Of a stretch of DNA of 10,598 nucleotides, positions 1 through 10,598 are shown piece after piece (positions within the stretch are counted from its first letter, which is position 1; each line of letters opens with the position of its first letter). The DNA is from a virus. Its lineage: Duplodnaviria; Heunggongvirae; Uroviricota; Caudoviricetes. Below the pieces are notes generated by a model. The model was not told the DNA's origin, made no database searches, and worked only from the letters and a program-made list of their open reading frames with translations. The DNA lies in the IMG/VR virus record IMGVR_UViG_2695420487_000003, positions 1 to 10,598 of that record; one strand, given 5' to 3'. The position numbers and the translations under genes are program-made.

Positions 1-326
1 GGGGTGATACTTTTGCCGTCCGCCGGTACCGGAATATTCGCAACCGCATCATTCACCGCCTGCTGCAGTACATCCGGATCATAATCACGACCATCACGCG
101 GTACCGGAATGGTCCCCACAGCGTCATCCACCATCGCCTGCAGAACCGGATGTACCTCATCCACCGTCACATGCTTCTGTAATACCGCCGACAGGGAAGC
201 CAGTTTCTCTTCAAACGCTTGTGCCTGCGCGGCCATCTTCTCCTCAAATGTGCGCTGTAAATCCGCCAGCACCGTGGCGAATTCTTCGCCCAGTGCACGA
301 ATAATGGACAGTTCCCGTTCCGTCAT
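1..326 (-). CDS. hypothetical phage head-module protein, N-terminal fragment (gene continues past the left edge of the window)
   Basis: Minus-strand ATG at 326-324 overlaps the portal stop (ATGA coupling). The frame stays open to position 1; my hand translation reads MTERELSIIRALGEEFATVLADLQRTFEEKMAAQAQAFEEKLASLSAVLQKHVTVDEVHPVLQAMVDDAVGTIPVPRDGRDYDPDVLQQAVNDAVANIPVPADGKSITP. Absent from the ORF track because it is truncated. No family recognised. Confidence 0.5.
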   Translation of the reverse strand, partial: MTERELSIIRALGEEFATVLADLQRTFEEKMAAQAQAFEEKLASLSAVLQKHVTVDEVHPVLQAMVDDAVGTIPVPRDGRDYDPDVLQQAVNDAVANIPVPADGKSIT

Positions 327-1687
327 TTTCGCAGTATCCCCCTCAACATCGCTTTCAACGCACCATGCTCTGTTTCACTGATTGCCTTATTACAGTCAGA
401 TGCGCCGTCAGGCAGTTGGGCTGAAACTCTTTTCCCGGACGACGCAAACGGATCTTCACGGGCATCACGACGGGACAGCGCCTCCAGACTGTAGTTCTGC
501 TGCTGAAGATACAGTGCATCACCGCCGGCCAGGGGCGGCAGGTTCTCACGTTTACGGGCCTCATTGGGCGTGAGAAGCGTATTTTTCACCGACTCACCCA
601 GCGTTTTCATGCGCCGTTCGCTGTCCATTCTCAGCAGCGTGGTGACGTCAAACTCCGTACTCTCGTTTTCCCCCGTTTCCAGCGCCTCATCCAGTAACAG
701 TTCAATGGACTCAATCAGCGTCTGCAGGCACTGGGAATAATACTGCTGCTCCAGCGCCTCCACGTTGTCACTGGAAGGTGGCTGGCCAACGCCAATCTTG
801 TAGGCCGGGACACGGAACACCGAACAGACAATTTCAGCGGTCATCTTCAGTTGTTCCACCGTCTGCGCATCCACCGGTGAAAACGTCGTGGGGTTGTATT
901 TTGCCCCGTTGCTCAGAATGGCCGTTTTCCCCGCATTTTCGCCGGTATACCCGCTGTCCCAGTTGCTCTTCAGTTTTTTCGCATTTTCTTCCGTAATACT
1001 GCCGGGGATCTCAATCACCCCGGACGGCCTGCCGCCATTTCTGAAAAAAGACGTCGAATTTTCCTGAATATGATGCCCCTGCGTGGCCGCCAGCCCGGCG
1101 GCATACACCGGCGGCAGCCCCACAAGCGGATGAAAAAAACAGTTAAACCGGTCGTGGATCACTTCCCGGGCAGGCACCGTCACCGCCTCCGTGATCCCGC
1201 AGTTCCGGTCCGGCGTGATGCGATAGAACACCTCGCCGTCATCCGCCACCAGAGGTTCAACCCGGTTCCAGTCCAGAATACGCAGTTCTTTGATCTGCCC
1301 CCGGGAGTTACGGATTTTCAGCACCACCGTATTGCCGTGACGCAGTTTGGCGTTCAGCCACAGTTCAAAAAACTGGATACGATTCTGCTGTGAATTGGGA
1401 CGACGACAGAGGCGGGCAATATCCCCCTGCCGTTTTTCACGGCGGATCCCCTGTGTATCTGTCTGCATCAGGCGCAGCCGCATTTTGGCGATATCCTGGG
1501 ATATCAGCGAAATGCAAGAAAACACCGCATGAAAGGAGAGGACACTTTCCGGATCGGCTTTCACACCCTGCTGCCAGGCGCCGGCAAAGGGCTCAGCCAC
1601 CGCCTGAAACAGGCTGGTCCAGCCCACCTCTTTTACATCACGTCCTGATTTCTGGTTTTTTCGGGTTCGTCGCAAAAAGTTCCACAT
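323..1687 (-). CDS. phage portal protein, HK97 family-like
   Basis: 454-aa ORF. Segments typical of HK97-type portals: AVFSCISLISQDIAKMRLRL near the N-terminus, FFRNGGRPSGVIEIPGSITEENAKKLKSNW, and SPVDAQTVEQLKMTAEIVCSVFRVPAYKIGV resembling the conserved portal FGVPPxLxG region. ATG at 1687 has GGAG about 8 nt upstream and an in-frame stop one codon further up. Sits in a terminase/capsid module. Confidence 0.8.
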   Translation of the reverse strand: MWNFLRRTRKNQKSGRDVKEVGWTSLFQAVAEPFAGAWQQGVKADPESVLSFHAVFSCISLISQDIAKMRLRLMQTDTQGIRREKRQGDIARLCRRPNSQQNRIQFFELWLNAKLRHGNTVVLKIRNSRGQIKELRILDWNRVEPLVADDGEVFYRITPDRNCGITEAVTVPAREVIHDRFNCFFHPLVGLPPVYAAGLAATQGHHIQENSTSFFRNGGRPSGVIEIPGSITEENAKKLKSNWDSGYTGENAGKTAILSNGAKYNPTTFSPVDAQTVEQLKMTAEIVCSVFRVPAYKIGVGQPPSSDNVEALEQQYYSQCLQTLIESIELLLDEALETGENESTEFDVTTLLRMDSERRMKTLGESVKNTLLTPNEARKRENLPPLAGGDALYLQQQNYSLEALSRRDAREDPFASSGKRVSAQLPDGASDCNKAISETEHGALKAMLRGILRK

Positions 1688-1898
1688 TCGCTATGCTCCG
1701 CATCATGTTTCTTTTTCTGACCCGCCGGACGTCGCGCTGTGATGTACTCCGCCTTCCTCAGGCGAACCAGCACCTCCGCACACGGCTGTGCGACATCCCG
1801 GATATCCCCGGGCCGGGCATCATGTGTACCCTGCAGATATCGGATTTTTGCCATCAGTTACTGCGGGACGCTCTCACCTCCCGCCCTCCTCATCAGAC

Positions 1899-3836
1899 TC
1901 AGCCGCCGGACGCACTGCCGTAGTTCACACCGGTGATCACAGCCACCGCCGCAGTACGGCGACGACGCCAGTTGATCCAGCGCTCCGCACGGATGGCCAC
2001 GCTGCCGGTCTGGAACATGGAAACCAGCTCCACCGGCGACGGTGTGGTGCTGTCGCCGCCCGGCTCAGACTGCATTTCCAGTGACGCTTCACGGGACATA
2101 TCCACTGCCACACCGCCGTCATCCGCCAGATAAATATCCGGTGCATTCACCAGTACCAGCTGGTCACCCACATACTGGGAGACAATCACCGGAAGCCCCT
2201 GAAAGATCCCGCCCAGCAGGGTCATGTCCGGATATTCCTTCTGACCCAGCGCATTTTTACGCATGGACAGCGCCAGGGCATTGGTGCTGGACATCAGCCA
2301 GACCGCACCAGTGGGCTGCAGATTTGCCGTCACAAACTGGCCAAACGCGGCCTCGGCATCCGCATCCGGGTTACCGGTTGATGCCGTGCCCTTCACATCA
2401 TGGGTGATGGACGCCGGGGAGACATCTGCCACTGCAGCTTTTTTCGGGTCCACAAAGTCTGTGTCCAGACGCGCCACCACCGCTTCTGCCAGCGCATTAC
2501 GGACCAGCGCATCAGCTGCCGGACTGGAAAAACGGATCAATTCTTCCGTCAGTACCGCAATGGCCGACACTTTCGCATGACTGAAGGTGATGGATTCAAA
2601 ATCAAACTTCGTCAGGGGTTTTGCCTTACCCTCACCCACCCAGCCGGCAGCACCGCCGGACACCTGGGCGTGCACACGGATATTGAACGGCACCTGACGA
2701 AGTGCAGGGATCCCGCCCTGACCAAATCGCCCGATAATGGTCTGCGGACGCAGGTAATCAATAAAGTCCTGTGCGTATTCCTGATATTCAGACAGGCTGC
2801 CTGCCCACTGCGGATCCGTGGTGGTCCCCGCGCCCACTGCCGATTTCAGGACATGATGCAGACGACTGTCATCCGGATACTGACGACGGGCCACTTCCAG
2901 GGCTTCAGATCGGACGCCTTTAGCCGCAGCCAGCGATTTGGCAAAGCGGGCGAAGCCAATCCCCTTCTCCAGTTTCTGCTCCACACGGATCACCGGCGCT
3001 GAAGCCACCGCGGCCACATTCCCGTTACCGGCCTGTTTCACCGGCTGCGCCGTGGCGGCCTTACCGGCTTCCAGTTCACGCAGGCGCTTCAGGTGCGCAT
3101 CCACCTGACGGATTTCCGCTGCGGTGTTGTCGTAATGCTCTTCCTCCTCCACATCCAGCGTGCGCCCTTCCTCTGCGGCTTTGGTCATGACCTCCTCAAG
3201 GGAGGCTGCCAGCGCTGCACGCTTGTTTTCAAAACTTTTAATCTGTTCGCCAATATTCATTATGGTCTTTTCCTTATGAAAAACGGTTGTTGACTGTGCC
3301 GCAGCGCCGGCAGAAGATGCGATTTTCACCACCGGTTTCCGGTTGCCGGACGCGGCAGAAAACGGGCGGTCGTAAGATTTAATGGTCCGGATGGTGCATT
3401 CCGCATTCGCGGGCACGGTGACGGCAGACACCTCCATCAGTTCCCAGCGCAGAAAATGCAGTCCGCCTCCGTCCAGAAAGGTGTATTCATGGGGACGGAA
3501 GCCCACGGACAGCCCCCTGACCAGCCCGGTCTTAATGGCCGCCCAGACCTCATCCAGCCGGGCTGCCATCTGGGAGGGCATCCCCGGCTCCGGCTTCACC
3601 AGCATTGCCGTGATTTCCAGCCCTTCCCTGACCCGACGCACCGTACACTGGCCTACAGGGCGGGAATGGTCATGCTGCCAGAGAAACGGGATCGTACTGC
3701 CAAACTCCGCCCCCTCCGGCTCCAGGATGTCACCATCCCGATCCGGAGAAGGCGTTGACGCAATCCCGGTGATCACCCGTTCATCCTCACTGAAGGATTT
3801 CACCGTCAGCAGGGAACAGGCCCGTTTAAGAGTCAC
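1899..3836 (-). CDS. fused prohead protease (HK97 family, S78/U35-like) and HK97-fold major capsid protein
   Basis: 645-aa ORF. GTG start at 3836 sits 5 nt downstream of a perfect AGGAGG. N-terminal part has prohead-protease-like motifs (RVITGIASTPSPDRDGDILEPEGAEF, LMEVSAVTVPANAE). A charged, coiled-coil-like segment follows (KRAALAASLEEVMTKAAEEGRTLDVEEEEHY, LKRLRELEAGKA). The C-terminal roughly 350 aa look like an HK97-type major capsid protein (GWVGEGKAKPLTKFDFESITFSHAKVSAIAVLTEELI, DTDFVDPKK). Assignment from motif memory, not a search. Confidence 0.7.
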   Translation of the reverse strand: MTLKRACSLLTVKSFSEDERVITGIASTPSPDRDGDILEPEGAEFGSTIPFLWQHDHSRPVGQCTVRRVREGLEITAMLVKPEPGMPSQMAARLDEVWAAIKTGLVRGLSVGFRPHEYTFLDGGGLHFLRWELMEVSAVTVPANAECTIRTIKSYDRPFSAASGNRKPVVKIASSAGAAAQSTTVFHKEKTIMNIGEQIKSFENKRAALAASLEEVMTKAAEEGRTLDVEEEEHYDNTAAEIRQVDAHLKRLRELEAGKAATAQPVKQAGNGNVAAVASAPVIRVEQKLEKGIGFARFAKSLAAAKGVRSEALEVARRQYPDDSRLHHVLKSAVGAGTTTDPQWAGSLSEYQEYAQDFIDYLRPQTIIGRFGQGGIPALRQVPFNIRVHAQVSGGAAGWVGEGKAKPLTKFDFESITFSHAKVSAIAVLTEELIRFSSPAADALVRNALAEAVVARLDTDFVDPKKAAVADVSPASITHDVKGTASTGNPDADAEAAFGQFVTANLQPTGAVWLMSSTNALALSMRKNALGQKEYPDMTLLGGIFQGLPVIVSQYVGDQLVLVNAPDIYLADDGGVAVDMSREASLEMQSEPGGDSTTPSPVELVSMFQTGSVAIRAERWINWRRRRTAAVAVITGVNYGSASGG

Positions 3837-3851
3837 ATCAGCCTCCTGAAA

Positions 3852-3874
3852 ATAAAAAAACCGCCGGAGCGGTT
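3852..3874 (-). terminator. short hairpin plus long U-tract between terL and the protease/capsid gene (attenuator or partial terminator candidate)
   Basis: Minus strand reads AACCGC-uccg-GCGGUU followed by UUUUUAUUUU, then AGGAGG and the GTG start of the next gene. Stem is only 6 bp, so strength is uncertain. Confidence 0.35.
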
Positions 3875-3899
3875 CGTGATGGTTACAGGGTGAGCAGGG

Positions 3900-5561
3900 T
3901 TATATGAAAAAAACCTCATACGCTTTCTTTTTCGGTTCCGGATTCAGGGACATCAGGGACACCGCATTGAAGAGCGCCATCAGCGGGTCAATTTTTCCCC
4001 GTCCGCTGGCCTGTTTGGTGATAAGAATGGCGTTACCTTTAGGCTCCCCCCGGGCATTGCCAACGCACCAGGCCATCAGTGGCTGACCACCATGCACCAG
4101 CACTCCCTCAGCCAGTTTGCGCTCGGTGGTTTTGATGGCCCCGCCCAGCTTCCAGCCCTGGCTTATCCCCACCACACTCTCATCGGGGATCCCGGCTTCC
4201 GCCAGTGAATCCAGAATCTGCCCCACACCTGACGGGGCAATACCGATATGGTCCAGTAACTCAGCCTCATGAATACGACGCACATACTCCGCCACTTCCG
4301 CCGTGTCATCCCCGACCCGACGGACAATCGTCATGTCTCCACAGGCCACAAAATCCTGAAACCGGGATGCCTCACTCTTCCGTCTGACCACCGCGGTTTC
4401 ATGCACCCAGGCATGGCCCCAGCCCAGCCATTCGCGGGTTTCCCTGTCACGGCCAGTCACGTACATTCCCAGCAGATCATCCAGGCCCCCGCCGTCAATC
4501 CCCACCGTCACCACATCAGCGCGCTGCAGGATATCGTCCAGGCTGACGCGCCTGCCCTGCTGCTCCCAGAAATCCGCGCCCGCCCAGCGGTCAGAACGCA
4601 GGGCAAGACCGATTTCCACATTGGCGTGTTTTGACATGAAGCCACGAAATGCTTCCTCACCAGCCTCCCGGGCTTTACGGTACTCCCGGTACAGAAAAGC
4701 CTCATCCACCGAATAACCGAGATTCGGGTTAACCATGGCGAGGTTTTCCATCAGCAGGTGAGCCCCGCTTTCCACCATTTCAGGAGGGTGTTCAAATATC
4801 ACCGGCAGAAAGTGCGGATCATGAATTTTGCCGTCACGGACATCCCGGGCGTACTGCAGTTTCTGTCTGAACACCCCGGCTGGCGGCTCATTCGACTGGG
4901 TGGTTGTGTACACCACAAATCCTTCCGGACGGGAGGCAAGCCCGCCGATGGCTTCACGTAGCATGTCTTCCGCTTTGTACTGCTTGCCAAACAGCCACAG
5001 TTCATCAATCAGTGTCCCCACGGACTTGATACCGGACACCGTATTCGGATCGGCTGCCACCACCTTCAGGGTGGTGTCCGTCACCCGATGGGTGATGGTC
5101 CGGATATGTGTCTGCACCTGACAGAGGTCATCCAGATCATCGTCCCGTCGCACCATATCCCTGGCAGGGTTGAAGGCGTTGGCCGCCACCTCCACGGTCG
5201 GGGCCAGAATGGTGTAGCCCGCCGCCTGCCGCCAGTTCAGTAACAGCGCCGTCATCATGATCCCCGCGGCCAGCGTGGACTTACTGTTTTTCTTGGGGAT
5301 AAGGATAAACACTTCCTTGATATGGCGTACACCGGTCTGCGCATCATAGGAGCCAAACAGGGCCGCCACCAGGTCAAACACCCACGGTGCGCAGGACTCC
5401 CCGAACGTCGGGCTACCCGGTGCATCCACAATCCGCAGTTGTTTAAAAATCGCCAGGGCATGTGCAGCCTGGTCCGGATAAATCGGAGCCGGAATAATCG
5501 ACAGTCCCTTTTGCAGGCGCTCTGCCCAGTCCGGACATGCCGTGCTCCATACAGGTATCAT
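3900..5561 (-). CDS. terL: terminase large subunit (Terminase_1 / COG4626-like)
   Basis: 553-aa ORF. ATG at 5561 overlaps the terS stop (ATGA). Deviant Walker-A-like ILIPKKNSKST; C-terminal GKIDPLMALFNAVSLM typical of the nuclease end of this terminase family. Lies directly downstream of a small-terminase gene. Confidence 0.85.
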   Translation of the reverse strand: MIPVWSTACPDWAERLQKGLSIIPAPIYPDQAAHALAIFKQLRIVDAPGSPTFGESCAPWVFDLVAALFGSYDAQTGVRHIKEVFILIPKKNSKSTLAAGIMMTALLLNWRQAAGYTILAPTVEVAANAFNPARDMVRRDDDLDDLCQVQTHIRTITHRVTDTTLKVVAADPNTVSGIKSVGTLIDELWLFGKQYKAEDMLREAIGGLASRPEGFVVYTTTQSNEPPAGVFRQKLQYARDVRDGKIHDPHFLPVIFEHPPEMVESGAHLLMENLAMVNPNLGYSVDEAFLYREYRKAREAGEEAFRGFMSKHANVEIGLALRSDRWAGADFWEQQGRRVSLDDILQRADVVTVGIDGGGLDDLLGMYVTGRDRETREWLGWGHAWVHETAVVRRKSEASRFQDFVACGDMTIVRRVGDDTAEVAEYVRRIHEAELLDHIGIAPSGVGQILDSLAEAGIPDESVVGISQGWKLGGAIKTTERKLAEGVLVHGGQPLMAWCVGNARGEPKGNAILITKQASGRGKIDPLMALFNAVSLMSLNPEPKKKAYEVFFI

Positions 5562-6121
5562 CCGCTTTCCTCATTCTGGTTATTCACCACCAGCCGGGGA
5601 GGTGGTGGCACCGCAAAACGGTTAGCCGCTTTTTTCGCGGCATCACCTTTTGCCGATTTTTTACCGGCATCGCCTTTTTTATGGTGCGTGAACTGCGCCA
5701 GACGCCAGGCCGCATCCAGTGCCAGTTTCGGATCAATGCAGAGGTTTTCCACCAGGATCCGCCCCATGGCTTTCACCGGATCGGGAAGACCATCCTCCAT
5801 ATATTCAATACCAGGAGACATCACCGCGGACGGTGGCATCTCCGGATTGTTTTCGTCCGGCTGTGGTATTGCAGCCACCTCACGGCGACGGGGTTTATCC
5901 TCCTGCTCTGATTTTTTCTGCCGGTAAACAGGAACCTCATCCACCTCCACCGTCTCGCACTGTTTACGGGCTATAAACGCGAGCACCTCCGGATCTTTTG
6001 CCAGCTGCGAGCCTTTAACCCTGGCGGTCTTCGCCGAATAACCGGCGGCAATGGCTGACGCTGTTTTGTTTTTCCCGGACATGAGCGCCAGCGCAAATTT
6101 TCGTTTTTGCGTTGTCAGCAC
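5558..6121 (-). CDS. terS: terminase small subunit (P27 / Terminase_2-like)
   Basis: 187-aa ORF. GTG start at 6121 preceded by GGAGGAGG. N-terminus LTTQKRKFALALMSGKNKTASAIAAGYSAKTARVKGSQLAKDPEV matches the conserved helix-turn-helix start of Terminase_2-type small subunits. Lys/Ala-rich C-terminus. Stop overlaps the terL start. Confidence 0.75.
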   Translation of the reverse strand: MLTTQKRKFALALMSGKNKTASAIAAGYSAKTARVKGSQLAKDPEVLAFIARKQCETVEVDEVPVYRQKKSEQEDKPRRREVAAIPQPDENNPEMPPSAVMSPGIEYMEDGLPDPVKAMGRILVENLCIDPKLALDAAWRLAQFTHHKKGDAGKKSAKGDAAKKAANRFAVPPPPRLVVNNQNEESG

Positions 6122-6410
6122 AGCCTCCTCCCGGGTCCAGAACGCACTCAGCCGGGTATGGTTCAGCCCATTTTTCCCGGCGTCTCATGCCGCAAATGTT
6201 AACTGCTGCCTGGTTAACATTTGCTGAAAAAGCCAGTTAACATTTTTTTCGCACAACAAACTGAATAATAAAGATAAAAACCGAAAAAATGCCCGGGCAG
6301 CCAGTTAACATGTTAACTGGCCTGAAACAGGAATTTTTTCTCTGCATGAGACGGGGGGCGGTGTCCGGGGCGATCGTTTTTTTCGCCGGATGATCCCCCC
6401 CCGGGTCGGG
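6122..6410. other. non-coding packaging-recognition region, candidate cos site (cosN/cosB-like)
   Basis: 289-bp interval between the HNH stop and the terS start with no convincing ORF. Contains the GTTAACAT repeat array, an A/T-rich tract (6244-6290) and a GC-rich segment (6351-6410) with G6 and C8 runs; its core GGGCGGTGTCC resembles the lambda cohesive end GGGCGGCGACCT. The HNH-cos-terS layout is typical of HK97-like cos phages. Confidence 0.4.
6192..6320. repeat. array of CAGTTAACAT / ATGTTAACTG decamer repeats including a perfect 20-bp palindrome
   Basis: Copies at 6196-6205 (ATGTTAACTG), 6211-6220 (tGGTTAACAT), 6234-6243 (CAGTTAACAT), 6302-6311 (CAGTTAACAT) and 6311-6320 (ATGTTAACTG). 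Inverted pair gcaaatgttaac (6192-6203) / gttaacatttgc (6213-6224); perfect palindrome ccagttaacatgttaactgg at 6301-6320. Confidence 0.8.
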
Positions 6411-6776
6411 TTACAGTCCGATGATGTCGTCTGCTCTGCCATGACCTCCGGACACCTCCGGCAGCATCGGGTCCGGCATACCACTCACCGCTTCACGAGC
6501 AGACTTTTGTCGATGGCATTCGGTACAGAGCGTCCAGAGATTCGTCTCCTCATTACCACCACCGAACTGAAGTGCAATGCGGTGATCGAGTTCACTGTCA
6601 CAGAGGTCAACCACACGACCACAGAGACAGCACTGCCCGGCATCCCTGAGCCAGATATGACGCTTGAGGGAAACACGTGCACTGCCACTGACACGACGCT
6701 GTTCCCCCTTCAGAATATTCACCCGTCGGGTGTTCAGAGTTTTGATTCTGCTCTGGAGTGTACGAAGCTCAGCCAT
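6411..6776 (-). CDS. HNH endonuclease (terminase-associated type)
   Basis: 121-aa ORF. ATG at 6776 with GGGGA 6 nt upstream. HNH/zinc-finger motif CCLCGRVVDLCDSELDHRIALQFGGGNEETNLWTLCTECHRQKS. Lies immediately upstream of the candidate cos region and terS, as in HK97-like phages. Confidence 0.85.
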   Translation of the reverse strand: MAELRTLQSRIKTLNTRRVNILKGEQRRVSGSARVSLKRHIWLRDAGQCCLCGRVVDLCDSELDHRIALQFGGGNEETNLWTLCTECHRQKSAREAVSGMPDPMLPEVSGGHGRADDIIGL

Positions 6777-6817
6777 GTAAAATCCCCGTCATATGGCAAT
6801 CAGTAAAGGAAATAAAT

Positions 6818-7018
6818 ATGTCATCGAAAAACCGGACCCGCAGAACCACAACCCGCAATATCCGTTTCCCCAATCACATGATTGAACAGATCAACATCGC
6901 CCTTGAGCATAAAGGGTCCAGTAACTTTTCAGCGTGGGTTATTGAAGCCTGCAGGAGAAGGCTGGCAACAGATGCAACGCATCTGCGTACGGCCAGCATG
7001 ACAAATAACGAGAAATGA
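6818..7018 (+). CDS. small basic protein, DUF3950/YlcI-like (prophage-associated)
   Basis: Internal ATG at 6818 of track ORF 6758..7018, preceded by AAAGGA about 8 nt upstream. 66 aa: MSSKNRTRRTTTRNIRFPNHMIEQINIALEHKGSSNFSAWVIEACRRRLATDATHLRTASMTNNEK. From memory this resembles the YlcI/DUF3950 family of E. coli prophages; unverified. Only convincing plus-strand gene in the window. Confidence 0.55.
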   Translation: MSSKNRTRRTTTRNIRFPNHMIEQINIALEHKGSSNFSAWVIEACRRRLATDATHLRTASMTNNEK

Positions 7019-7207
7019 ACGTTCGGTTTCTTCCACCATCGTACCGGACAGGCGACTATGAGGGGACAACGCCGCGCTCCGTTAACGCGGTAAACCCCGG
7101 TGTGTATCGTTTTTGATTATCCCCGCACACTCGCGCAGAGGAGTCTCCCTGTCGGGCTACGGTCATGGTTAATGCGGAAATACGGCGACGATACAGCGCA
7201 TAATGTG

Positions 7208-7756
7208 TCAGGCTTGAATACCTTTATCGAATCCCGGTAATAAAAACTGTCCCTGTCTCTCCAGACGTTCCAGCTTTGCAAGCAATTGAGGTTTTTTCGT
7301 TCTCCCCCAGCGATTGAGCAGACGGCCTGACATGCTGGCGACATCCTTCTCTTTCATGTACTCCAGCATTACGACGTTACGTTCTGCTTCATAACTTTCG
7401 CTGTACTTACGGAGTTCTGCTGACATCCAGTTAAACGCATTGATATAGGCTTCTTTAACAGCATCGGCTTTTGCCCCGTTAAATCCCATAACCAGCATAA
7501 CGAAGCCACTAAAGTCCATGCGGTAGTAAATCTGTTTCTTGTCAAAAATACCTAAGTCATTGATTTTCTCGACGGCCCCAAAATGGGTTGTCGAGAATTC
7601 CTCAGAACATCTCAAACATTTAATAGCCCTAATCACATGCTGATGGCGTTTACCAAATGCCCTGGCAATCTGGAAGGTGTCAGTTACCGGTTGACCTTCT
7701 GCTGCGGTAACTAACTGGCGAAAGTCGAAGTCATGATTCGCAATTAATTCATTCAT
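7208..7756 (-). CDS. Rha-family phage regulatory protein (Phage_pRha domain)
   Basis: N-terminal region QPVTDTFQIARAFGKRHQHVIRAIKCLRC...FSTTHFG...YYRMDFSGFVMLVMGFNG matches the Rha domain pattern (xVTxSxxIAExFGKRHxxVLRxI). Start placed at the ATG at 7756 (MNELIANHDF...); the track ORF extends to a GTG at 7825, which is an alternative start. Composition is more AT-rich than the head genes. Confidence 0.6.
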   Translation of the reverse strand: MNELIANHDFDFRQLVTAAEGQPVTDTFQIARAFGKRHQHVIRAIKCLRCSEEFSTTHFGAVEKINDLGIFDKKQIYYRMDFSGFVMLVMGFNGAKADAVKEAYINAFNWMSAELRKYSESYEAERNVVMLEYMKEKDVASMSGRLLNRWGRTKKPQLLAKLERLERQGQFLLPGFDKGIQA

Positions 7757-7910
7757 GGCGTTGCCTGCTTCTTTGAAATGAACCTTTGCCGCACAGGAAA
7801 CCAGCCCACCGAGGCTCGCCAGCACTAACTGGTATCCTCAAAGGCCCATTCCAAAGGGTCAGGTTCGGTGTTTATTGTGCGCTGCGGTGCGCGGTGAAAT
7901 ACCGGTACAA

Positions 7911-7936
7911 AAATGCCCCGCATCTGCGAGGCATTT
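7911..7936 (-). terminator. weak hairpin plus short U-tract downstream of Rz (possible terminator or RNA-stabilising stem)
   Basis: Arms aaatgcc (7911-7917) and ggcattt (7930-7936) with inner cgca/tgcg pairing. On the minus strand the stem is followed by TTTTTGT. About 40 nt downstream of the Rz stop. Confidence 0.25.
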
Positions 7937-7974
7937 TCCTGAAAGTCACTTGTTAAATTTCAGTGAAATTAAAA

Positions 7975-8412
7975 TTATTTTAAGCACTGCGTCCTGATGT
8001 ATTCCTGCAGGTAGTTAACCTGCGCGGTTATCTTGTCGATTCCACCTCGGAGACGGTAATAATTGAGTTCAGCATCTGCTGTAAGTCCTGGGCTTTCTCC
8101 ATCGCCCATGCTGCTGGCTCCGGTCGTTGACTTTGCACAGGTGGCGGAGACTTGCAGGCGCTTACGCCCAGCAGAAACATCAGCACGGAGACTTTCGATA
8201 GTCGCATTAGCATCAGCAAGCTCCTTTGTGTATCTGGCGTCAAGTTCTGCTACATCACGTTGCCGCTTCTGCATATCAGCGATGATGGATGTGGCTTTAT
8301 CGCGCTGCTCTTTGTAGGCGATGGCGTTATCACGGTAATGATTAACAGCCCATGAAAGGCAGACGATGAGGCAGATGACCAGAACGTAGATAATCGCGGT
8401 TACTCTGCTCAT
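7975..8412 (-). CDS. Rz: i-spanin Rz
   Basis: ATG at 8412 overlaps the endolysin stop (ATGA). N-terminal transmembrane segment [20 protein letters not shown] followed by a charged, coiled-coil periplasmic domain. Position is immediately after the endolysin. The track ORF has a 4-codon GTG extension that I reject. Confidence 0.75.
8028..8213 (-). CDS. Rz1: o-spanin Rz1 (outer-membrane lipoprotein), embedded in Rz in another frame
   Basis: ATG at 8213 with AAGGAG 8 nt upstream. [20 protein letters not shown] gives a signal peptide with a lipobox-like VSAC Cys, followed by the proline-rich [16 protein letters not shown]. Wholly nested inside Rz, as in lambda and phage 21. Confidence 0.65.
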
Positions 8413-8906
8413 TGTTGCCCCCACAAACAGACTTCACGCTCAATCTCACGGCGAGTCATCAGCCCTTTCCATTGCTTACCGCCAGCGTATGTCCAGCGCC
8501 GTAGCTGATCACATGCGCCTTTGATATCGCCCTGGTTTATTTTGCGAAGAAGCGTCGATGTTCTGAAATTGCCAGCGCCCACGTTGTAAACGAACGAGTA
8601 AAGAGCGCCGCGCGTTGTTTCCGGTATATCGACTTTGATGTACGGGTTTATTTGTCTGGCGACCGTGGCAAGGTCTTTATTCAGGAGGGCTTTGCATTCT
8701 GCTTCGGTATACGTTTTACCGGGCATGATGTCTTTTCCGGTGTGTCCATGACATACAGTCCATACGCCAACGATATCTTCGTATGGTATGTAGCTGACAC
8801 CTTCCAGGCCATCGTCACCACTCGGACCAGTGATGAGCACAGACGCTATGGCAACAGCCCCACCACCAATAGCAGCAGCAACGGCTTTTCGTAATGATGG
8901 AGGCAT
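8409..8906 (-). CDS. R: SAR endolysin (phage-21 R / lysozyme, signal-anchor-release type)
   Basis: 165 aa. N-terminal Gly/Ala-rich weakly hydrophobic SAR segment [30 protein letters not shown]. Catalytic E35-x8-D44-x5-T50 spacing in [17 protein letters not shown]. Resembles the R21 / DLP12 RrrD lysozyme family. Start overlaps the holin stop (TAATG). Confidence 0.9.
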
Positions 8907-9112
8907 TATTCACCTCTCGCAGCCTTGCGCTTATCTTCTTTAATCTTGAAATAAAGGTTTGTCAGATACGTCAGCAGGCCAAACAGCAGACTCCCCAGCA
9001 CACCGATTGCCACCCACTGGGACGGAGAGACTTTGTCCAGCAGCTGCAGTAACCAGTATCCCGTCCCCACCGCTGACGTGGTGTATGACACACCCGTTGT
9101 GATTTTTTCCAT
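8906..9112 (-). CDS. S: class II holin (pinholin, phage-21 S-like)
   Basis: 68 aa from the ATG at 9112: [68 protein letters not shown]. Two transmembrane segments and a charged C-terminus. Paired with a SAR endolysin, which is the pinholin signature. The track's GTG-initiated 23-codon extension is rejected. Confidence 0.85.
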
Positions 9113-9367
9113 CTGATGTATGTCTCCGTCACCGCCGACAGAAAATGAAAGTAAAGGAAAACAAAAAGCCGCCAGTGTCACCCACTGACGGCCAACTCCG
9201 GGAGCCGTGATTATGGCATTCAGGCTCTGCTAAAAATGCCAGATAACATTCCGACCAACCCCTGATTCAGGTTATAAATGACACAATATCTTGACAACAT
9301 CCGTCACTGTCTGTCAGAAAATGTACTGCCAGATATAAGTATCATGTGAAACCCAACTATCCTTCTT

Positions 9368-9410
9368 AGCCAGTACTTCTCCGACGAAAGTCAGTACTGG
9401 CTGTTTTTTT
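9368..9410 (+). terminator. Rho-independent-terminator-like hairpin plus T7 tract, functional orientation on the plus strand
   Basis: 10-bp perfect stem agccagtact (9368-9377) / agtactggct (9393-9402), inner gac-GAAA-gtc GNRA tetraloop, followed by gttttttt (9403-9410). On the minus strand the hairpin is followed by AAGAAGG, so it is not a canonical terminator for the late operon. Confidence 0.4.
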
Positions 9411-9411
9411 A

Positions 9412-10598
9412 TTATGCTGCCGGTGCATTTATCTCCAGCACCAGACTTTCTATCTCAACGCCATACGCTGCATTTTTTGTAACATCCGTCAGCGTCAGCA
9501 CATTCAGTCCCAGTGTCAGACTGTCTTTTATAACCTGGAATGCCGGGCCAGCCACTCCATTCAGTTTCGGAGTAACCGTGGCACTGCCGGCGGTGAACAC
9601 CAGCTCCAGCGTCTGCCAGTCGTTACCGTAATCGCCGAACTCCCCCAGCTTCGTGTTTCCGGCTTTCCTGTGATGCATCAGATTCACTCTGCCGTCAGTG
9701 GTCTGAGTGAAGTACGACATCAGGAACGGATTACCGGTACCCGTCATCGCCACACCATCAGGAACGGGAGCATCCGTATACAGATAAATCCCCAGCCCGA
9801 ACTGATTGTTGGTCAGTGCGCCTGACAGGCGGAACTTACAGTTCAGTCTGCCGCCCTGTGTCAGCAGGGTAATTGCGTCATCCACCGGATGCGTCAGGGA
9901 CCAGGNNNNNNNNNGACAACTGAATTCCGCCATCCTTAATGCTCCAGCCCTGCGCAGCAGCCTCTCCGGCTGCCGGCAGCAGGGAGATTGTGCGAACGGA
10001 CGTATCTGCAGACGGACCCGATGGCGTGTTGCCGCCGGGCGAGGGTTTGATTTCCGGTGCCTTACCACTGATGAAGGCTGAGGTGCGCCCGGCTGCGTTC
10101 AGAATAGCGGTTGCCAGACGATCCGGAATAATGCTCCTGCGCGCCCATGAACTGAAATGTGTCGGGCGGTTTGATGATACCTGGTTTCCATTCGTTCTCG
10201 ATGCCGCACCGTAATATCCTGATGCCGGAATATCCGGATCTTCTGCCGGCGCGTTAGTGGCGGTATTGACGCCGTTACCGTCTGTCATGAAGGGCACAAA
10301 ATAAACGCCCTCACTCTCCCTGTTTTTATACCCGCCGTACACGGTGTCGTACTGGGTAGCGTATGTATTTTTCCAGTAATACGTCGTGTCACCACAAATC
10401 CACGGCACATTTACAGCACTGCCACCATGACACTGCGCGTTAAACACAGTGAGGTCAGCACGAAACTGCTTCAGCATGGCTGTAAACAGCGCAGGTTGCT
10501 GTGCGTAGGTGGCGGCGCTCATGTCAAACTCTCCCTGCATCCAGCACACCGCCAGCAACACATTTTTCGGGTTCTTCTGTAATGCAGCTTTAGTGCGC
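9412..10598 (-). CDS. large esterase-like late-region protein, probably NanS-p-type sialate O-acetylesterase; partial (N-terminus beyond right edge) and broken by an assembly gap
   Basis: Track ORFs 9878..10561 and 9412..10068 are one gene whose frame changes across the N-run at 9906-9914. The upstream frame remains open to 10598 (RTKAALQKNPKNVLLAVCWMQGEFD...). Stop TAA at 9412-9414. Sits immediately upstream of holin S, where lambdoid/Stx prophages carry the nanS-p (yjhS-like) gene. Family call is from context and memory, not a search. Confidence 0.5.
9906..9914. other. run of 9 N (assembly or scaffold gap)
   Basis: Literal nnnnnnnnn in the sequence; the reading frame of the enclosing gene differs on the two sides, so the true gap length is probably not 9. 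Confidence 0.95.

Follow-up and report, generated by a model that had tools for sequence, protein, structure and literature searches.

A contig-truncated nanS-p-type esterase gene in the late region of a lambdoid prophage

The esterase gene and the late genes that follow it

The window analysed here (10,598 nt) is the whole of contig CYAD01000076.1 (assembly GCA_001283705.1) in reverse complement, its N-run included. This contig was found through an exact match to the large terminase, whose sequence is specific to the window; a window-specific 45-mer had no exact match among the genome contigs searched, and none of the 43 IMG/VR loci that share it is the source itself. The minus strand is open in one frame from 10597 to the N-run and in a second one from the N-run to a TAA stop at 9412–9414; jointly, the two frames make up 395 codons in the window as written. 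The initial annotation described a minus-strand ORF of at least 395 codons, running past the right edge and lying about 300 bp from the holin gene, and this description is accurate, the interval being 299 nt. The reading frame is real and did not arise by chance, as both of its pieces match solved structures (PDB entries 3PT5 and 6YP6, see below).

In relatives (complete E. coli genomes and phage records), the same spot is occupied by a 1851-nt gene, which is annotated as 'SASA family carbohydrate esterase', 'DUF6645 domain-containing protein' or 'yjhS: 9-O-acetyl-N-acetylneuraminic acid deacetylase'. Compared with this gene, nanS-p, the window encodes residues 213–439 and 454–616 of a 616-residue protein. 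The 5' 636 nt, coding for residues 1–212, are missing because the contig ends there; they correspond to DUF1737 and to the first half of the esterase domain, in which the GQSN serine lies. Since the contig end falls inside nanS-p, the record holds no sequence beyond 10598. The features discussed below are collected in Table 1.

Table 1. Positions, strands and supporting evidence of the features of the esterase gene and of the neighbouring late genes in the window
Feature	Position	Strand	Description and basis
Rz-type lysis gene	7975–8412	-	PF03245
Endolysin gene	8409–8906	-	PF00959
Class II holin gene S	8906–9112	-	68 aa, first gene of the lysis cassette; PF04971
Intrinsic-terminator-like hairpin between esterase and holin genes	9167–9193	-	11 bp, 7 GC, then TTTTGTTTT; pattern scan
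Hairpin just 3' of the esterase stop	9368–9409	+	13-bp interrupted stem, then U7; fold -17.8 kcal/mol, z -4.5
nanS-p, 3' part	9412–10598	-	codons 213–616 of a 616-codon gene, and stop; translation, annotation of relatives
C-terminal jelly-roll domain	9415–9903	-	residues 454–616; PF20350 E 2.6e-18, 6YP6 E 3.5e-27
Run of nine N	9906–9914		scaffold gap standing for 38 nt (codons 440–453); present in CYAD01000076.1 itself
C-terminal half of the catalytic domain (NanS-like SGNH type II, SASA), then Pro/Gly/Ser-rich linker	9915–10597	-	residues 213–439; phmmer against PDB
His359, RPTH motif	10157–10159	-	aligns with catalytic His301 of NanS
Q233-G234-E235 of the WMQGE motif (SGNH/SASA block)	10529–10537	-	identical in NanS; 3PT5 alignment

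On the minus strand, the esterase gene is followed by the genes for the holin, the endolysin and the Rz-type protein, then by those for Rha, HNH, TerS, TerL, a protease–capsid fusion and the portal. The lysis genes were identified by Pfam searches of the gene calls of the source contig and from the PGAP annotation of L003, a complete genome. This succession of lysis, terminase and head genes bears out the initial placement of the esterase directly upstream of S in a lambdoid late operon. The gene thus has the location expected in a lambdoid late region, between Q/pR' and S; the Q side would lie beyond the contig end and is seen in L053, a 4.87-Mb contig (GCA_977064715.1). The endolysin is a widespread protein, with exact-protein matches in 861 blocks that belong mostly to unrelated prophages and include L053.

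At the other end of the window (1–1687, minus strand), the 454-aa portal gene (323–1687) is followed by an overlapping ORF which runs off the left edge. In L053 (both genes together at 17220–19804) this ORF codes for 407 aa and has no Pfam match, and in L003 (11103–13687) PGAP merges the portal gene and the overlapping ORF into one 'frameshifted' portal gene. The arrangement may truly consist of two genes, or it may reflect a programmed frameshift or an annotation habit.

Two hairpins lie between the esterase and holin genes. That at 9167–9193 has a folding energy of -21.1 kcal/mol (z -4.9); it is also found in L053, and the phage 434 record gives it as a terminator. The one at 9368–9409 is followed by a U-run when it is read on the plus strand, and on the esterase strand its stem lacks a following U-run. 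The phage 434 record has an annotated plus-strand terminator at the matching place, and the 9368–9409 hairpin looks like a terminator for transcription that converges on the esterase gene, in the antisense direction.

Domains, catalytic residues and known relatives

The two window pieces were translated directly, with no use of the sequence of relatives, and compared to the PDB. The translation of 9915–10597 matches 3PT5, which is the 9-O-acetyl-N-acetylneuraminate esterase NanS (YjhS) of E. coli, with an E-value of 2.5e-45 (phmmer); positions 1–167 of the query, which are residues 213–379 of the protein, align with residues 170–332 of the chain. The translation of 9415–9903 matches 6YP6, deposited as 'NanS-p', over 160 residues (E 3.5e-27). 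According to the literature, the domain crystallised for 6YP6 is the C-terminal jelly-roll of vb_24B_21, a phi24B protein. The proposal that the gene is a nanS-p (yjhS-like) esterase with SASA/SGNH homology is confirmed by these two matches.

In Pfam searches, the only match of the reconstructed window fragment is DUF6645 (PF20350, E 2.6e-18), while a full-length relative matches DUF1737 (PF08410, E 2.1e-15), SASA (PF03629, E 1.1e-12) and DUF6645. The SASA match spans residues 66–262, most of which are off the contig. The full-length relative aligns with 3PT5 over residues 60–379 with an E-value of 2.2e-120, and DUF1737 is also found in the gene calls of L052 and L053 (PF08410). From the PF20350 match and the homology to 6YP6, the protein is predicted to have a lectin-like jelly-roll domain at its C-terminus.

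The catalytic residues of NanS are a Ser19–His301 dyad, the usual Asp being absent (PMC9063846). The block that contains the histidine reads RPTHFSS in the window and RSSHFSS in NanS (3PT5), and the RPTH variant has been recorded for the NanS-p of the Stx2a prophage 86 (PMC10462455). The GQSN serine block is at positions 71–74 of the L053 protein, which is itself identical to the window over all the residues that the latter encodes.

The window pieces are 100% identical, at the amino acid level, to the intact 616-aa protein of L053, and 97–98% identical to the alleles of phage 434 and of the Stx1a phages. We consider it very probable that an intact nanS-p gene of the 616-aa subtype, carried by a lambdoid prophage whose head module is of HK97 type, is represented here by its 3' two-thirds, the draft contig ending inside this gene. 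That the 5' third is intact in the source strain is what we infer from L053, the one relative used for this point. Points that weigh against the reading are the position of the GQSN serine and DUF1737 outside the contig, the RPTH variant of the histidine block, and the replacement of one of the four proposed sugar-binding aromatic residues. The gene, its family and its position are all already known, and so are the differences between subtypes. The nanS-p gene is well described in lambdoid prophages of E. coli. The significance of the result lies mainly in the correct annotation of the locus.

The closest named homologues are the NanS-p of phage 434 (UMO75335.1) and that of the Stx1a phages (BCI49065.1, yjhS). 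They have the same length of 616 aa and the same RPTH block and DUF6645-type C-terminal domain, with few substitutions, and their genes are at the same place, directly upstream of a class II holin gene. What differs is the gene content further upstream, namely stx1AB in the Stx1a phages and membrane-protein genes in phage 434 and L053. The head module beside the 616-aa allele also differs, being of lambda type in L001 and of HK97 type here.

The NanS-p of 933W (L0105/z1466) and that of phi24B (vb_24B_21/gp84) are nearly identical to each other and are longer (645 aa, compared to 616 aa here). They have the same succession of DUF1737, SASA and jelly-roll domains (DUF1737 being taken here from a relative) and the same place in the late operon, between Q/stx and S. 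Relative to 933W L0105, the identity amounts to 71% in the catalytic domain, 62% in the N-terminal domain, with a deletion of three residues in the loop that bears the Tyr42 'tooth', and approximately 36% in the C-terminal domain. Among the aromatic residues proposed to form the sugar site in 933W/phi24B, three correspond to aromatic residues here (Y510F, Y515Y and Y540F), whereas the fourth does not (F611L). The histidine block is RASH in 933W/phi24B and RPTH here. The phages themselves are different, 933W/phi24B being T=9 podoviruses, whereas here the head is of HK97 type and the tail is long (the tail genes are seen in L003). The NanS-p of phi24B is reported to be an esterase that decorates the capsid and processes itself (bioRxiv 10.64898/2026.04.10.717836). 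The chromosomal NanS (YjhS, 3PT5) shares the SGNH type II fold family and the motifs of the Ser-His dyad, but it is a single-domain protein, with neither DUF1737 nor jelly-roll, and its gene belongs to the nan regulon and not to a phage late operon.

The N-run, the missing flank and Shiga toxin

L053 is the best proxy for the flank that is missing from the record: it has a single mismatch to window 1–9905 (99.99% identity) and is 100% identical to 9915–10598. Its esterase gene is intact and codes for 616 aa. Upstream of this gene are a strong terminator-like hairpin, a 52-aa DUF3927 gene, a gene for a 252-aa multi-pass membrane protein that is homologous to the product of phage 434 gene 68, and a lambda-type Q antiterminator gene (PF03589, E 4.3e-57). 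The ORF list and the gene calls of L053 contain neither stx nor tRNA genes in the interval between Q and the esterase gene.

As written, the two halves of the esterase are in different frames, and the gene calls of the assembly itself give split products of 214 and 173 aa, as would be the case for a pseudogene with a genuine frameshift around 9906–9914. However, the break is exactly at the N-run, and N-runs in draft assemblies may misstate the size of a gap: a short N-run need not equal the true gap, so that a change of frame across it is no evidence for a pseudogene. In all 27 relatives that contain both 14-nt anchors the spacing is exactly 38 nt, and in L001 and L002 the sequences that flank the N-run also align 38 nt apart. 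The difference between 38 and the nine N is 29, which equals 2 modulo 3, hence the apparent frameshift. When the 38 nt of the relatives are put into the gap, a single ORF of 404 codons is obtained, which ends at the TAA; the expected sequence of the gap is close to ATTTATTGCTCTGCTTGGCGATCTTAAATACACCACCC. Neither a stop nor, outside the N-run, a change of frame was found in the 1,178 determined bases, and the residues they encode are identical to those of the intact protein. A pseudogene is thus extremely improbable, and the frame break is an artefact of the assembly, not a lesion in the gene. The initial annotation was right about a frame break at an N-run located within 9850–9950 (it is at 9906–9914), but its view that the integrity of the gene could not be judged does not hold, given the spacing that restores the frame in 27 out of 27 relatives. 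The idea that two gap sizes explain the two classes of megablast matches (1476 and 1328 nt) was rejected: the 148 nt by which they differ lie in the esterase–holin spacer, and both classes have the same gap of 38 nt.

It may also be asked whether the scaffold is chimeric, with two nanS-p paralogues of one genome, parts of different prophages, joined across the N-run. The gene is indeed multi-copy: complete E. coli genomes with any match to the esterase query have it at a median of two places and at up to 11. Eleven of the 23 whole-contig loci from IMG/VR end inside nanS-p, and L003 is 98.8% identical to window 1–9905 and 88.5% identical to 9915–10598, which indicates a mosaic junction near the gap. 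On the other hand, the two halves are contiguous in L053, with 38 nt between them, and they both have matches of at least 99% in L001 and L002. As the join is spanned by contiguous sequence in L053, a chimera was rejected, and we rate it as very unlikely, only marginally less so than a pseudogene. The reading of a single intact gene cut by the end of the contig is therefore kept. Since nanS-p is present in several copies, it is a habitual breakpoint of contigs in short-read assemblies, which explains why the flank beyond 10598 is absent from the record.

A mosaic junction inside the esterase gene, near the N-run (window 9906–9914 and flanks; L003 21906–21945), is an observation of its own. In L039 and L043 the right part is 100% identical to the window, and there is no alignment of at least 400 nt to the left of the N-run. 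Taken together, the patterns in L003, L039 and L043 point to recombination, within the gene, between nanS-p paralogues or alleles.

The initial annotation stated that stxAB lies upstream of nanS-p in Stx phages, and this is correct. In the Stx1a phages (L048, for instance), approximately 500 nt separate stx1AB from a downstream allele with 97% identity, and in 933W stx2AB is approximately 490 nt upstream of the 645-aa allele. One may thus imagine that the window is the late region of a Stx-converting prophage, with stxAB or another toxin immediately upstream, on another contig of the assembly, all the more as 22 of the 42 matches in the phage collection are Stx1a-converting phages. This collection, however, is biased towards Stx phages that were sequenced deliberately. 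The Q–esterase interval of L053, which differs from the window at one position in 10.6 kb, has no stx; nor do the sequences upstream of the esterase in L003 and L004, the best whole-window matches among complete genomes. No stx was found either in the sequence examined of the 43 IMG/VR loci that share a window-specific 45-mer, and in tblastn searches with Stx1A/B over the loci gathered before L053, the only match was L048. As for frequencies, in the 5,426 complete E. coli genomes the esterase query has 6,554 places (in 1,938 genomes), and stx2AB and stx1AB have 743 and 360, respectively (1,103 in total), so that at most about 17% of the copies can adjoin a toxin operon. NanS-p is encoded by both Stx and non-Stx prophages (PMC10462455), and the non-Stx phage 434 has the same 616-aa allele. 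We consider a Stx prophage to be as improbable here as a pseudogene. The suggestion of toxin cargo just past the right edge is not supported, the flank of L053 having Q, membrane-protein and DUF3927 genes instead, and toxin is not the cargo to be expected in this prophage. The esterase query has about six times as many places as stx1 and stx2 together and occurs in phage 434; an esterase gene upstream of S thus does not mark a phage as Stx-converting.

The weaker claim, that the interval between Q and nanS-p is a cargo slot, is supported by relatives, since its contents are highly variable. Among the 43 IMG/VR loci that share a 45-mer with the window, the interval contains one of several gene sets: DUF3927 with a TerB-like gene, tRNA-Arg/Arg/Ile with a DNA methyltransferase gene, restriction–modification genes, or membrane-protein genes of the 434 type. 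In five loci (L014, L024, L026, L027 and L044), approximately 1.5 kb separate the start of the esterase gene from tRNA-Arg and tRNA-Ile(CAU) genes; this stretch has no match to the cargo-gene probes, and according to tblastn it is not stx. In the late cargo slot or just upstream of it, L003 (24691–28220) has a type I methyltransferase and S subunit fragments, and L002 (15697–17707) has an NgoMIV-type endonuclease and a cytosine methyltransferase. These restriction–modification genes exemplify defence cargo at, or next to, the place that stx occupies in Stx phages.

Expression and possible role in the virion

Enzymatic activity, expression from the late operon and a benefit to the lysogen or the phage are features that we infer from published homologues. 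By analogy, the protein would consist of an N-terminal DUF1737 (off the contig), a NanS-like esterase domain and a C-terminal jelly-roll, the latter being thought to bind carbohydrate. The SGNH type II domain, with its Ser-His dyad, would remove the 9-O-acetyl group of Neu5,9Ac2 and yield Neu5Ac, and the enzyme would also de-O-acetylate mucin sialoglycans. According to the review PMC8065619, every NanS-p allele that was tested from EDL933 and from O104:H4 strains was an active esterase and allowed growth on Neu5,9Ac2.

With Q/pR' on one side and the lysis genes on the other, and with terminators at both its ends, the nanS-p gene would be part of a late transcript that depends on Q. In L053, terminator-like hairpins indeed flank the gene at either end; in the window, the downstream one is seen. 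Since the hairpins bracket the gene, substantial expression should need antitermination by Q, that is, induction of the prophage. The position in the late transcript and the bracketing terminators also suggest that NanS-p is made mainly after induction and released at lysis. Such a dependence on Q is in line with published work in which nanS-p mRNA rose under inducing conditions (PMC10462455).

In phi24B, the homologue gp84 is reported in a 2026 preprint to be a virion protein, whose DUF1737 binds as a hexamer in the pores of the capsid hexons and which then undergoes proteolytic processing (bioRxiv 10.64898/2026.04.10.717836). By analogy, the NanS-p studied here might be a component of the virion, in which DUF1737 would plug the hexon pores of the HK97-type head (that with the S78 protease–MCP fusion) and display the esterase and lectin domains; we hold this to be unlikely, albeit much less so than a pseudogene or a Stx prophage. 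As an accessory gene, nanS-p would let lysogens use the O-acetylated sialic acids of mucus, and in phi24B its product decorates the capsid.

The first 60 residues of the esterase, which include the whole of DUF1737, are identical beside heads of two types. The lambda-type head (S49 peptidase, lambda-type portal and gpW) is found in L001, at 1–5084, with the esterase gene at 9261–11111, and also in phage 434. The HK97-type head, with its S78 protease–MCP fusion, is found in L053, at 12786–18584, with the esterase gene at 7645–9495, and also in the window, for which the shared DUF1737 is deduced from L053. Either DUF1737 is a generalist that binds the hexons of unrelated heads, or only podoviruses like phi24B have decorated capsids and the domain has another role here. 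L049 is also listed for this shared DUF1737.
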